A DNA stretch of 40,312 bases from Candidatus Aenigmatarchaeota archaeon (GCA_030615165.1 JAUWZW010000002.1:1-40312); one strand, 5' to 3'; shown: positions 15,830 to 39,883, numbered from the stretch's first letter. Notes: a model not told the origin generated them from the letters alone. Numbers and translations: made by a program.

Positions 15830-16567
15830 ATGAGAAAGGCGTTTTCCTTGATTTCAGGGGTTTTGTTTCTGGCAATCACCATAACAGCGGTTGTTGTTGT
15901 ATATCAAGCCGGGATGCCCATCGTCAAGAGGATGCAGGTATCTGCAGCAATAGAGCAGATGAAAACAACATTTGTAGAGCTGGACGAGCTGATAAGACAG
16001 ATAGCAGCTGAGGGGGCTGGTTCCAAGAGAGCGGTTCAGCTGAGGGTGGACCCGGGCAAGCTCATAGTTAATGAAATCCAGGACTCTATTTACTGGGAAC
16101 TGGAGACATATGCAATGATTATCTCACCGAGAACCAAACAGCAGTTTGGCAACATTGCTGTGGGTTCAAATCTGAATACAAGGGTATATGAGGCAAACTA
16201 TACAAGGGTATCACCGGAGATTAAATGTTATGTGATGGAGAATGAACATCTGAAGGTTTATGTGAGAAAGGTAGGTGTCAACACATCTCAAGACGGCTGG
16301 GAGAATTTCAACACAAGCTCACTTGTCATTGCAATCTACAACAAGGATATGAATGAATGGCTTGAGAATGAGGGGTTTCTGGAGATAACAGTTGATGATA
16401 ATACAAATTCAAAAACAGGAAATGGCTATACAATACCACTCGAGACAGGGTACAATCTGCCGTATGGAGCGGTAACAGCACATATGAACTCCAGCTATCT
16501 CGCATACAGCATAAACTTCACCCTTGGGTCAGGTGCTGACTTTTTGGATATTGAGGCAAGCACCTAA
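15830..16567 (+). CDS. Class III signal peptide protein (minor pilin-like)
   Basis: MRKA/FSLISGVLFLAITITAVVVV N-terminus, several NxS/T sequons; N-terminal half resembles 28303..28986. Confidence 0.7.
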   Translation: MRKAFSLISGVLFLAITITAVVVVYQAGMPIVKRMQVSAAIEQMKTTFVELDELIRQIAAEGAGSKRAVQLRVDPGKLIVNEIQDSIYWELETYAMIISPRTKQQFGNIAVGSNLNTRVYEANYTRVSPEIKCYVMENEHLKVYVRKVGVNTSQDGWENFNTSSLVIAIYNKDMNEWLENEGFLEITVDDNTNSKTGNGYTIPLETGYNLPYGAVTAHMNSSYLAYSINFTLGSGADFLDIEAST

Positions 16568-16568
16568 T

Positions 16569-16692
16569 CCCTTTCTTTCGGGAAAGAAAGGTCTAAGGTA
16601 CAAAGGTCAAACATAGTAACGGTTTGAACCGTTAACCGATGAACATACGAACAGATGAATGTTTGAGCCTTTGTATTACCCCAAAGAAAGGG
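16569..16692. repeat. MITE-like palindromic element with a nested 77-nt hairpin insert
   Basis: Terminal IR ccctttcttt / aaagaaaggg. Without the 16599-16675 insert it matches 25146-25188 in the tRNA-Ile intron. Confidence 0.65.
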
Positions 16693-16751
16693 AGATTGTA
16701 AAGCAATGGGTCAATATATTAACAGGGCTCATAGCTCAGCCCTGAGCCTTT

Positions 16752-16827
16752 CACAAAGGTTAAGCAAATAACAGTTCAAACTGTTAATTGATGAACAGAT
16801 GAACTTATGATCGCTTAAGCCTTTGTG
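16752..16827. repeat. Second copy of the 76-77 nt covarying hairpin element
   Basis: cacaaagg-ttaagc...gcttaa-g-cctttgtg with inner taacagt/actgtta hairpin; homologous to 16599-16675. Confidence 0.7.
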
Positions 16828-16856
16828 GCTTACCCAAAAAATATGAGGAAGATATT

Positions 16857-17336
16857 ATGAAAAGAATGAAGGCAATATCACCGCTGATTTCTGCAGTCAT
16901 GGTAATCCTAATTGCATTTGCTTTATCCGCTCTCATAGCTCCCTGGGCGTTTGAGATAGCAAGGCAGCAGACAAACCAGACAGGCGGCTATGCAGAGCAG
17001 CAGATGATATGCCAGAACACAGCATATGACTTTGATACAAACTACGGGACAAACGGCGTTAATTGGACCTCTACAGGAACAAACGATAATTTAACTGTAA
17101 AGATAGTGAATACGGGATATCAAAATCTCTACAATTTCTCATTTGAACTTGTGATAAATGACACAGTTATATTGCGTCCTGATGTAACAGATGCGACCCA
17201 GAAGACAAGTATAAATCCTCTGGAACCTAGTCAGAGTACTTTCCTCAATACAACAGCCAATATCAGCGGAACATTGAGTGAAGTCAAGATACTAAACATA
17301 GTTTGCCCGAGTGTTTATGCAAGGCAGGAATTGTAA
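16857..17336 (+). CDS. Archaeal type IV pilin-like protein
   Basis: MKA/ISPLISAVMVILIA class III signal peptide, IVNTG motif, two Cys, many NxS/T sequons. Confidence 0.85.
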   Translation: MKRMKAISPLISAVMVILIAFALSALIAPWAFEIARQQTNQTGGYAEQQMICQNTAYDFDTNYGTNGVNWTSTGTNDNLTVKIVNTGYQNLYNFSFELVINDTVILRPDVTDATQKTSINPLEPSQSTFLNTTANISGTLSEVKILNIVCPSVYARQEL

Positions 17337-24548: not shown

Positions 24549-24977
24549 ATGCTCGTGAAGGAAATAATGAACACTGATGTGAAGACGGTAAGCCCGGATT
24601 CAATTATCCAGAAGGCAGCAAAGAAAATGAGCAAGCATCATGTGGGGTGCCTGATTGTTGTTAAGGACAGCAGGCTTGTTGGCATTGTGACAGAGAGGGA
24701 CATAATGAGGAATGTCGTTGCAAAGGCACTTGATGCTAAAAAAACAAAGGTAAAGAATGTGATGACAAAAAAGGTCATAATGGTAGACCCGGAAAGGGAC
24801 GTTGAGGATGCGGCAGAGATAATGACTGAGAAGAAGATAAAGAAGCTGCCTGTTATCCTTCATGACAAGGTTATAGGGATTGTTACAGCAATGGATATTG
24901 TGACTGCACACCCAAAGACCATAGAGCAGATAGGCAAGTTACTGCTTCTCCCAAAGAAAAAGGCTGTGGCCGGCTAG
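24549..24977 (+). CDS. CBS domain pair protein
   Basis: VGIVTERDI and IGIVTAMDI CBS repeats. Confidence 0.92.
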   Translation: MLVKEIMNTDVKTVSPDSIIQKAAKKMSKHHVGCLIVVKDSRLVGIVTERDIMRNVVAKALDAKKTKVKNVMTKKVIMVDPERDVEDAAEIMTEKKIKKLPVILHDKVIGIVTAMDIVTAHPKTIEQIGKLLLLPKKKAVAG

Positions 24978-25012
24978 TTTTTTAAATGTATCCAATCTAT
25001 AAAATATTCACA

Positions 25013-25233
25013 GGGCTCGTAGCTCAGTTGGTTAGAGCACCAACAAAATGGTATCTGGGTGTTCCCTGGATACTGCGGTGCATGTCTTATAATGGCTGTC
25101 CGCAACCAAGCCGTAGAAGCTGGCGGTCGAGGGTTCAAATCCCAACCCTTTCTTTCAAAAGGAAAGGTCTAGGCTTACCCCAAAGAAACACTTTACAAAA
25201 GAAACTGGGGAAATGAGAATCCCTCCGAGCCCA
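25013..25233 (+). tRNA. tRNA-Ile(UAU) with three introns (25043-25083, 25092-25117, 25140-25219)
   Basis: Splicing gives a 74-nt cloverleaf: acceptor GGGCTCG/CGAGCCC-A, D arm GCTC/GAGC, anticodon stem CCAGT/GCTGG with loop CT-TAT-AA, T arm GAGGG-TTCAAAT-CCCTC. BHB/BHL motifs at the junctions; TATA tttaaa about 25 nt upstream. Confidence 0.82.
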
Positions 25234-25278
25234 TTCATTGATTTATCGTCAAAAACAAACCCATACAACGTCGATTGA

Positions 25279-25296
25279 CCGAAAAGCTTTTAAATG
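25279..25296 (+). promoter_or_regulatory. BRE-TATA promoter of thermosome gene
   Basis: ccgaaaag followed by cttttaaat, then SD aggtga before ATG 25343. Confidence 0.55.
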
Positions 25297-25342
25297 CAAT
25301 CTGTAATATTATAGGATAGATTAACTTTATAGGTGAGTTGAT

Positions 25343-26992
25343 ATGGCAAACGGAGTAGCTCAGCTTGGCGGACAACCAATTTTGATACTTCCAGAAGGAG
25401 CCCTGAGAAGCAGGGGGAAGGACGCACAGAAGAGCAACATTGCAGCGGCAAGGGTTGTTGCCGATGCTGTCAGGACAACCCTGGGGCCAAAGGGCATGGA
25501 CAAGATGCTTGTTGATCCTCTGGGTGATGTTGTTATAACGAATGATGGCGCTACAATCCTTGATGAGATGCAGATTGAACATCCTGCAGCAAAGATGATG
25601 GCTGAGATTGCAAAGACCCAGGACAAAAGTGTTGGTGACGGAACCACAACAGCGGTTGTTATTGCAGGGGAATTGTTAAAGAAGGCTGAGGAGTTACTGG
25701 ACCAGGAAATTCATCCAACTGTCATAACAAGGGGATTCAGGCTTGCGAAGTTCAGGGTGCTGGATTTGTTAGACAGGATAGCAGACAACATTGACATAAA
25801 AAATGAAAAGGCTATGGAACAGGTTGCAACCACTGCAATGACAGGGAAATCAGCAGAGAAGGCATCAAAGGAACTTTCCGAGCTATCGGTCAGGGCAATC
25901 AAAAAAGTGGCTGAAACCAGGGCAGGAGGTGAAGTGGAAATAGACACGGACAACATAAAGATTGAGAAAAAGGAGGGAGGTTCAATCAATGATACAAAAC
26001 TTATAGAAGGGGTTCTTCTGGACAAAGAGGTTGTTCACTCAGCAATGCCGAGAAGGATTAAAAATGCAAGGATAGCCCTGCTTGACTGCGCCTTGGAGGT
26101 TAAGGAACTGGAATCAGATGCAAAGATAAACATAGATTCCCCTGAGAAGATGCAGGCATTCCTTGAAGAGGAAGAGAAGATGCTTAAAGGCATGGTCAGC
26201 AAGATTTCCCAGACAAAGGCCAATGCAGTTTTTTGCCAGAAGGGTATTGATGACACAGCCCAGCACTATCTTGCAAAGCTGGGAATCTTGGCAGCAAGGA
26301 GGGTGAAGAAGTCTGACATAGAGGCTTTGTCAAAGGCAACAGGGGCAAATATAATCTCGAAGGTAAATGATTTGTCAAAGGATGACTTGGGTTTTGCAGG
26401 TCTGGTTGAAGAAAGGAAGATTGCAGGGGATGAGATGATTTTTGTCGAGGAGTGCAAACAACCCAAGGCTGTTACAATACTGCTCAGGGGAGGAACAGAG
26501 CATGTTGTTGATGAGGTTGAGAGGGCAATGGAGGATGCAATAAAGGGAATTGCATCAGCCTTGGAACTGGGAAAGATAGTTCCTGGCGGGGGTGCTTCTG
26601 AGATAGAGATTGCAAGGGACTTGAGGAAGTATGCAGAGAGCTTCAAGGGCAGGGAGCAGCTGGCAATAAATGCATTCGCTGATGCGATTGAAGTGATTCC
26701 AAGGAGCCTTGCAGAGAACGCTGGCTTGGACCCTATAGACAAGCTTGCAAATCTGAGGGCACAGCATGATAAGGGCATGGCTTCGGCGGGTCTGGATGTT
26801 TTTACAAGTCAGATTCAGGACATGACAAAGCTTGGCGTTATAGAACCCCTGAAAATCAAATTGCAGGCAGTCCAGTCAGCGGCAGAGGCTGCGGAGATGA
26901 TACTGAGGATAGATGATGTAATCTCTGCAGGAACGAGCGAGAAGGGCGGTGCTCCGGGCATGCCGCCTGGCGGAATGCCACCGGGATACTGA
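25343..26992 (+). CDS. ths: Thermosome subunit (group II chaperonin)
   Basis: [42 protein letters not shown]-type tail. Confidence 0.97.
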
Positions 26993-39770: not shown

Positions 39771-39883
39771 TGGGCCCGGCGCGATTCGAACACGCGACCC
39801 TCGGCTTTCTTCACAGGCTTGCGCCTCAGCTCTTCTATTAAGCTATAGAAGACCGATGCTCTATCCAACTGAGCTACGGACCC
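39771..39883 (-). tRNA. tRNA-Arg(UCU) with canonical 37/38 intron (39807-39845)
   Basis: GGGTCCG/CGGGCCC-A acceptor, TCGGT-CT-TCT-A/A-GCCGA anticodon arm, TTCGAAT T loop, BHB with central helix CTTC/GAAG. Confidence 0.93.

Follow-up and report, generated by a model that had tools for sequence, protein, structure and literature searches.

A structured repeat shared by a T-loop intron of tRNA-Ile and intergenic sites in an archaeon of the phylum Aenigmatarchaeota

The tRNA-Ile gene and a matching intergenic element

The window, i.e., the whole stretch of 40,312 nucleotides analyzed here, is one contig (C74) of a 958-kb archaeal assembly in 75 contigs, with a G+C content of 43.6% and an estimated completeness of 82% (genome G000). 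A tRNA-Ile(UAU) gene disrupted by three introns was delimited by enumerating all bulge-helix-bulge (BHB) candidates and testing in ARAGORN every combination of one, two or three excisions. Its parts are the following:

25013..25233, plus strand: tRNA-Ile(UAU) gene with three introns (BHB enumeration, and ARAGORN on spliced candidates)
25013-25042, 25084-25092, 25119-25139 and 25220-25233, plus strand: its exons
25043..25083, plus strand: intron 1, 41 nt, position 29/30
25093..25118, plus strand: intron 2, 26 nt, position 38/39
25140..25219, plus strand: intron 3, the feature under study, 80 nt, T-loop position 59/60

Once 25043-25083, 25093-25118 and 25140-25219 are removed, ARAGORN returns a 74-nt cloverleaf tRNA-Ile with the anticodon TAT; from the unspliced gene (25013-25233) no tRNA is obtained by ARAGORN, run on the window, or by Rfam. 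An alternative anticodon loop, CGTAGAA, was dropped in favor of the CTTATAA given by the BHB enumeration. The first intron has a perfect 4-bp central helix (GCAC/GTGC), the bulges CA^A and AT^G (^ marks the cut) and a 3-bp outer helix. The second is a relaxed BHB, with the central helix TTAT/GTAG and a 4-bp inner helix and without an outer one. The third has the central helix TTCA/TGAG and the bulges AA^T and AA^T, and the 5-bp T-stem serves as its outer helix; it thus shows the complete motif of two 3-nt bulges with a 4-bp helix between them, in which each junction would be cut behind the second base of its bulge. An earlier note on this DNA had placed an 80-nt T-loop intron of a tRNA-Ile gene at 25140..25219, and was right in coordinates, length, position and identity (BHB and ARAGORN). 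Three introns are given as the maximum in one tRNA gene in the available passages of a 2011 paper. The only window tRNA detected by Rfam is an ordinary gene at 39771-39883 (minus strand), whose anticodon loop carries an intron of 41 nt.

Intron 3 contains a module, here called F1, which recurs between two protein genes of the same window, next to what looks like a broken tRNA gene:

25139..25191, plus strand: F1 module in intron 3; hairpin arms at 25147-25167, then the tail CTAGGCTTACCCCAAAGAAA (alignment, and covariance model R1 at 57.5 bits, E 1e-10 per genome)
16562..16692, plus strand: intergenic F1 copy, beginning at the stop codon of ORF 15830-16567 and interrupted by F2; R1 matches 16562-16607 (the 5' part; 42 bits, E 5e-7) and 16650-16692
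16599..16675, plus strand: F2, a nested 77-nt hairpin repeat (nhmmer profile, and a metagenome contig skipping the same interval)
16725..16739, plus strand: 15-nt fragment with the form of a tRNA 5' end (GGGCTCATAGCTCAG), comprising acceptor strand, D-stem strand and D-loop start (read from the sequence)
16740..16850, plus strand: putative remnant of an F1-type D-loop intron, 5' CCTGAGCCTTTC and 3' GGCTTACCCAAAAAATATGAGG (by comparison with the intact D-loop intron of the tRNA on contig C39)
16752-16828, plus strand: second F2 copy, inside that remnant (F2 alignment)

When up to 3 mismatches are allowed, the 43-mer at 25146-25188 is the only occurrence in the window; shuffles predict 0. The best single internal deletion in 16569-16689 is one of 77 nt (16600-16676 or, equally, 16599-16675), after which 38 of 44 positions are identical to the intronic 43-mer, with a score of 31 against a best of 7 among 5000 shuffles. 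The match proposed by the earlier note between this 43-mer and 16569-16689 without its 77-nt hairpin is therefore borne out. The general repeat search of the window did not list the pair because of the 77-nt gap. The aatccc-like letters that were said to precede both copies are the element's own 5' end (consensus CCTRATCCC) in the intergenic one; at the tRNA gene they belong to the T-loop/T-stem exon. Over 16500-16900, Rfam at E<=10 gives two weak irrelevant matches only.

F2 is itself a repeat, with 10 loci in G000 at E<=2e-12 and three more at E<=2e-4 (nhmmer). Its ends are paired, and the terminal helix covaries (ACAAAGG/CCTTTGT versus AATGAGG/CCTCATT). Public metagenome contigs were aligned to the window with 88% as the likeness threshold. 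A single contig of low depth (5), found in one run, omitted exactly 16599-16675 and had a single C instead, which restores a canonical F1; in this one contig, the comparison of filled and empty site reveals a replaced C and no duplication. A contig joint of the same depth leads from 16711 into a tRNA 5' half, and the F2-less contig could be read, on thin evidence, as the orthologous locus with a fuller tRNA where G000 keeps a 15-nt stub. In another metagenome contig the entire spacer is replaced by 32 nt that retain only the F1 tail, ahead of the downstream gene. Contig joints from 25139 to 25206 and from 25139 to 25212 were left unused, their sides being shorter than 30 nt and possibly from paralogous tRNAs.

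The 15-nt fragment ends where D-loop introns start in the tRNAs of contigs C39 and C10 and of the genomes G016 and G027. Since the C39 tRNA displays the intact arrangement, 16740-16850 may be taken as intron debris, and the whole of 16725-16850 looks like a tRNA 5' exon stub followed by the remnant of an F1-type D-loop intron, i.e., the debris of an intron-bearing tRNA gene. A split tRNA was also considered for the fragment at 16725 and rejected, as the 82%-complete assembly holds no matching 3' part. The acceptor strand of the fragment can pair with a TGAGCC slightly downstream (window 16725-16748). The two flanking ORFs, 15830-16567 and 16857-17336 (plus strand), both have translations whose N-terminus, on reading, looks pilin-like and hydrophobic.

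Structure, splice motif and distribution of F1

F1 folds into a 9-bp hairpin (CCUUUCUUU/AAAGAAAGG) and an outer helix of 3 bp, separated by a conserved 4x4 internal loop (GAUC/UCUA), and is completed by a single-stranded tail. The tail, CUAAGGCUYACCCCAAAGAAA, is conserved as sequence and is often followed by GGAUUUACA-like letters; the sequence of the unpaired internal loop and of the tail is kept across four families. The hairpin and the outer helix were obtained with RNAalifold from a first alignment of 16 copies from 9 genomes, and in this unfitted alignment the outer helix already covaries. The covariance model R1 gathered 67 copies (63 distinct) from the loci examined. In their alignment, which is fitted to R1 so that pair counts lean towards the structure, 97.6% of the cells are paired and 8 of the 12 pairs have compensatory changes; two-sided changes affect 71 cells, against 18 in shuffles, none of the 500 reaching that value, and when the register is shifted the paired fraction falls to 45-77%. 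The hairpin loops take inserts of 15-60 nt in several copies. In form the element is a hairpin plus a 3' tail, without inverted repeats as its bounds, and it comes in two subtypes (CCTRATCCC... and CCTGAGCC...), each of them both intronic and intergenic.

Within G000, four other tRNA genes carry an insert at this T-loop position, and intron 3 aligns with each of these inserts over about 80 nt (blastn, nhmmer profile). The spliced identities of the four genes are Val(UAC), Gly(UCC), a tRNA-Leu (ARAGORN anticodon AAG) and one without assigned identity. The tRNA-Leu gene at C10:5945-6185 (minus strand) has D-loop and T-loop introns and the anticodon loop CCAAGGA, with C33 and an apparent AAG; this call may be incomplete. 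Weaker versions of the F1 hairpin lie in the D-loop introns of the C10 tRNA and of the C39 tRNA, Thr(CGU) as read from its anticodon loop, in the canonical intron of the tRNA-Leu(CAA) on C67 and in the first intron of the C15 tRNA. The R1 hits in G000 at E<=1e-3 number 14, of which T-loop introns hold five, a D-loop intron holds one and the remaining eight are intergenic. The intergenic ones are situated as follows:

At stop codons: endA, ArgRS, SMC, L30, the Zn-ribbon gene before EF-1beta, and ORF 15830-16567
Antisense to the neighboring genes (2 of 8): beside PCNA, and between S9 and S10

As tRNA genes and their introns make up well below 1% of the genome by a rough estimate, six of 14 copies in tRNA introns represent a very strong enrichment.

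Across the order, R1 detects copies in 33 of 91 genomes, from 1 to 45 per genome; among more than 250 hits, about 90 copies were read for their context. Family f6 has F1 in none of its 14 genomes by R1, and many genera of the window's own family are also without copies. The tail motif, at one mismatch at most, is present in 14 of the 91 genomes, and a control read backwards in none. The best copy was inspected in 30 genomes and lies in a tRNA intron in 15 of the 23 that could be parsed (14 T-loop, 1 D-loop). These counts are what the earlier note had asked for in this genome and its relatives, and tRNA introns are prominent in both. A further 20 copies from four genomes comprise 10 in tRNA introns, two just 3' of a tRNA and eight elsewhere. 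All seven copies read in families f2 and f3 are tRNA introns, and most copies of family f4 (G027, G034) are intergenic, which points to intron residence as the most widespread state and to a lineage-specific intergenic expansion. All the intron copies read are in sense orientation. Some intergenic copies occupy orthologous sites: the one between the Zn-ribbon gene and EF-1beta is shared by G000, G017 and G027 (two families), and the one at the 3' end of endA by G000 and G006. In G027, 9 of 21 copies sit 9-35 nt upstream of a start codon in the same sense (12 of 21 within 150 nt), and in several of them the element has a TATA-like box upstream, at a distance of 20-25 nt; the position of the copies hints at a possible role in the mRNA leader.

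Orthologs of the tRNA-Ile gene with the same exon layout are found in G016 and G009, which belong to two other genera; the exons are conserved while the introns diverge. The intron at 29/30 is kept in both, and that at 38/39 is almost identical in G009. The earlier note had suggested a search for empty sites in such orthologs. No intron-free site exists among the tRNA-Ile(UAU) orthologs of these two genomes, as both have a 59/60 intron: that of G016 carries F1 with a 48-nt insert in the loop, and that of G009 is without F1, so that intron and repeat are separable. The G016 ortholog (locus L083, on G016:C20, about 1385-1720 of the locus) apparently has four introns (D-loop, 29/30, 38/39 and 59/60).

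The T-loop version of the intron is composed of F1, then a second hairpin, then the intron-side half of the splice motif. In many of these introns the second hairpin is a TTAACNGTT...AACNGTTAA palindrome resembling the core of F2 (L155, L156, L158 and L160 of G066; L014 of G014). F2 may have its origin in an intron module. On the intron side, the splice motif consists of YGRA and AA; its other half lies in the exons and is formed by the universal T-loop (UUCR, A58, N59^U60), which the T-stem closes. A strict test was applied to 35 loci, in which the 3' splice site was fixed by a 5/5 T-stem and a 4/4 central-helix pairing with the T-loop UUCR was required; by our own estimate, about 2% of loci would pass it by chance. 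It was passed by 35 F1-type 59/60 introns, which come from 29 of the 33 loci listed for a T-loop intron with F1 (at L034, L157, L158 and L159 the one expected did not emerge), and by two 59/60 introns without F1; eight rows were judged false, being clearly no tRNAs. Of the 37 introns that passed, 26 have AA^U as their 3' bulge. Since the exon-side half is the universal T-loop, such a cassette can work in any tRNA, which in turn explains the near-identical 59/60 introns in tRNAs for different amino acids.

The enzyme that would cut these motifs is encoded outside the window:

G000 contig C62:1433-2626, minus strand: EndA splicing endonuclease, 397 aa, with two PF01974 domains

Residues 10-397 of this protein match the epsilon2 structure PDB 4fz2 with E 1e-98. 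Searches found 68 relatives of it, mostly from Aenigmatarchaeota; the closest are 55-72% identical and again come mostly from Candidatus Aenigmatarchaeota, and genes of Micrarchaeota are 43-45% identical. According to the relevant passages, cleavage of a 59/60 intron by an epsilon2 enzyme was achieved in vitro (PMC3239211), and by 2018 Micrarchaeum and Mancarchaeum were the only known sources of this type (PMC5829648). The predicted epsilon2-type EndA of G000 would be expected to excise the 59/60 intron. A search among RNA runs for 24700-25700 of the window listed none that contains this region.

These introns also affect gene detection. The Rfam tRNA model finds 17 tRNA genes in the 82%-complete G000, 15 of them above the cut-off, and at least six more are hidden by non-canonical introns. 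The tRNA counts of such genomes are therefore underestimates, and standard tRNA finders miss many tRNA genes in the Aenigmatarchaeota phylum.

Origin and maintenance of the module

A family of 59/60 introns with F1 as its core spans an order of Aenigmatarchaeota. We give a probability of roughly 0.6 to the reading that F1 is a non-autonomous structured repeat which forms a portable T-loop intron cassette and has spread into spacers; the figure is a joint one, and also covers the extent of the intron family and the status of the 80-nt insert as a real BHB intron, probably spliced in vivo, that interrupts a working tRNA-Ile(UAU) gene at 59/60. The cassette would consist of F1, the second hairpin and the intron-side splice half, with the universal T-loop supplying the exon side, and the epsilon2-type endonuclease would remove it from the RNA. 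F1 would have been copied to sites that tolerate an extra hairpin, such as D-loop and anticodon-loop introns, tRNA flanks and the spacers between protein genes; the copy at 16562-16692 would be one such spacer copy, later hit by F2. The distribution of F1 is REP/MITE-like, and candidates for the copying process might be DNA-level events, namely recombination or gene conversion, and chemistry related to splicing. At least some of the intergenic copies may be leftovers of decayed intron-bearing tRNA genes. Signs of turnover are the copy number (0 to 45 among relatives), the loop inserts and the differences between the introns of G009 and G016. At the sites compared, F2 is missing at the window locus in one contig, and F1 is missing in the G009 ortholog and conserved at other orthologous sites.

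Regarding how the repeat came to lie in a tRNA intron, the earlier note had offered two ideas. That introns and repeat share an origin agrees with a homologous family of which 6 of 14 copies in G000, and 15 of 23 readable best copies elsewhere, reside in tRNA introns. The idea of a MITE-like element using the intron as a safe site holds in part. The element is a dispersed, palindromic, structured repeat and tRNA introns are its main home, but a MITE in the strict sense finds no support: no consistent target-site duplication was seen at the intergenic copies read, and no autonomous relative was found among the families tested (Y1 and TnpB). Simple recent transposition into a safe site is likewise opposed by the intergenic copies at orthologous sites, the sense-only orientation of the intron copies read, and the conserved unpaired loop and tail.

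The main rival is that F1 is a functional RNA motif of the host, either a binding site for a protein or RNA or a small RNA released from introns, leaders and spacers, and is kept by selection; we regard it as a serious alternative, although well behind the portable cassette in probability. The covarying helices, the lack of a link to any transposase, the uniform orientation of the intron copies read and the relative that retains only the tail before the downstream gene all agree with it, as does the placement of the G027 copies just ahead of start codons, several with a TATA-like box. The conservation of the GAUC/UCUA loop and the tail across four families, and that of copies at orthologous sites in different genera and families, indicate selection on the element itself, beyond mere tolerance. 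A host function fits poorly, however, with a copy number ranging from 0 to 45, with the absence of F1 from family f6, from many genera of the window's family and from the G009 tRNA-Ile intron, or with the 15-60 nt inserts that the hairpin loops tolerate. The neighboring genes share no function (endA, ArgRS, SMC, ribosomal proteins, PCNA, pilin-like proteins), and two of the eight intergenic copies of G000 are antisense to the flanking genes. Autoregulation of endA by F1 was rejected, since the element directly follows the stop codon in only 2 of 68 endA loci of other genomes (L110, L102). Two other roles were dismissed as well. A promoter reading, with the tail and TTTACAAA as BRE/TATA, was discarded on inspection: the distance to the ATG ranges from about 9 to more than 100 nt, position -26 would hit GGCTTACCCC, and an internal promoter in a tRNA intron has no evident purpose. 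An intrinsic terminator, by reasoning, would truncate five tRNA genes.

The imperfect palindrome, the conserved flanks and the mostly extragenic location of F1 would also suit a REP-like element moved by a Y1 transposase (IS200/IS605 or RAYT-type) that recognizes the hairpin, and G000 does have two Y1 genes, one at C22:4651-5004 beside a TnpB gene and one at C33:2443-2772 with a YHV..RGN-type motif (read in the DNA). This explanation is largely refuted by missing co-occurrence and we consider it very improbable: Y1/IS200-type genes occur in 17 of the 91 genomes, 7 of 33 with F1 versus 10 of 58 without, there is none in G027 (96% complete, 45 copies) or G034 (26 copies), and the two Y1 genes of G000 have no copies of F1 beside them. 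The Y1 gene on C33 (2413-2850, plus strand) needs a frame change close to its start to be read through, and about 170 nt downstream of it there is a 14-nt match to the interior of F2, possibly by chance. Least credible of all is that the intron and the intergenic element merely resemble each other as low-complexity purine/pyrimidine runs, or that the gene is a tRNA pseudogene with an insert other than an intron. The arms are indeed CT- and AG-rich, and ARAGORN and Rfam skip the unspliced gene. Chance similarity, by which the earlier note would have fallen, is nevertheless refuted by the shuffles (0 of 5000 reach the score), the two R1 E-values (1e-10 and 5e-7), the empty backwards control in 91 genomes and the compensatory changes in the helices; against a pseudogene stand the three BHB introns whose removal yields a canonical cloverleaf, and the exons conserved in two other genera.

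A bolder form of the cassette reading is that F1 plus the 3' half of the splice motif constitutes a self-contained portable BHB-intron cassette, a new, gene-less kind of archaeal mobile element able to seed introns in any tRNA. This is speculative, and we find it on the whole doubtful. If true, the cassette would live where the host endonuclease and ligase erase it from the RNA, leaving intergenic copies and broken tRNA genes behind, and would be a long-sought vehicle of archaeal tRNA intron gain. The observations bear in any case on how archaeal tRNA genes gain non-canonical introns. A family whose core covaries, and of which genomes of about 1 Mb contain dozens of copies not located in tRNA genes, offers a data set for the direction and mechanism of spread, and its members are concrete substrates for the epsilon2 endonuclease.

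Comparison with known systems

The bacterial REP/REPIN and Correia elements, which are MITE-like, are short non-coding hairpins with tens of copies per genome, located at gene ends or between cistrons and co-transcribed with them. F1 resembles them as a short, non-coding, intergenic hairpin in tens of copies. It differs in having no link to a RAYT or other transposase, no target-site duplication seen, a sequence conserved across families, intron copies that were all read in sense, and a best copy that in most genomes lies in a tRNA intron. A structured RNA module present both in a tRNA intron and in regions flanking mRNAs also recalls the C/D box small RNA of the archaeal tRNA-Trp intron and the small RNAs processed from UTRs. 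Unlike these, F1 lacks C, D and ACA boxes and a K-turn when read by eye, Rfam gives no match and no guide target was identified; K-turn, C/D and H/ACA readings were rejected on these grounds, box sequences and geometry being absent.

The closest precedents are archaeal. In 2010, Fujishima et al. reportedly described transposition of tRNA introns on a large scale in Thermoproteales. According to passages of two papers, similar introns occupy the same positions in different tRNAs of this group, which was interpreted as intron transposition by a mechanism stated to be unknown (PMC4033280, PMC4090602). The resemblance extends, as far as those passages go, to closely similar introns that different tRNAs carry at matching positions, canonical or non-canonical, and that are found here at 59/60 with about 80 nt and also in relatives, to an endonuclease of broad specificity and to many tRNA genes with several introns. 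Yet the Thermoproteales are TACK archaea with an (alpha-beta)2 enzyme, whereas the present genome belongs to the DPANN Aenigmatarchaeota and has the epsilon2 type. The family described here is, moreover, centered on 59/60 with a covarying structured core, and its module is abundant outside tRNA genes, a feature unmentioned for Thermoproteales in the passages of PMC4033280 and PMC4090602.

ARMAN-2 (Candidatus Micrarchaeum; PMC3239211, 4fz2) shares with the present case T-loop introns at 59/60 and highly disrupted tRNA genes, as well as an EndA of three units and about 395 aa that is a full-length homolog (E 1e-98). The 59/60 intron tested there, as given in the available part of that paper, has 13 nt and a relaxed hBH motif, while those described here have 60-140 nt, both bulges and a conserved repeat; the same part of PMC3239211 reports neither a shared intron core nor intergenic homologs. 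In the literature on archaeal tRNA introns with MITEs and on tRNA introns of Aenigmarchaeota and DPANN, judged by title and abstract, there is no description of F1. What appears new here is the lineage, the defined structured core of the intron family and the abundant homologs of that core outside tRNA genes; the known phenomenon of intron transposition would gain another lineage, and a link to intergenic repeats.
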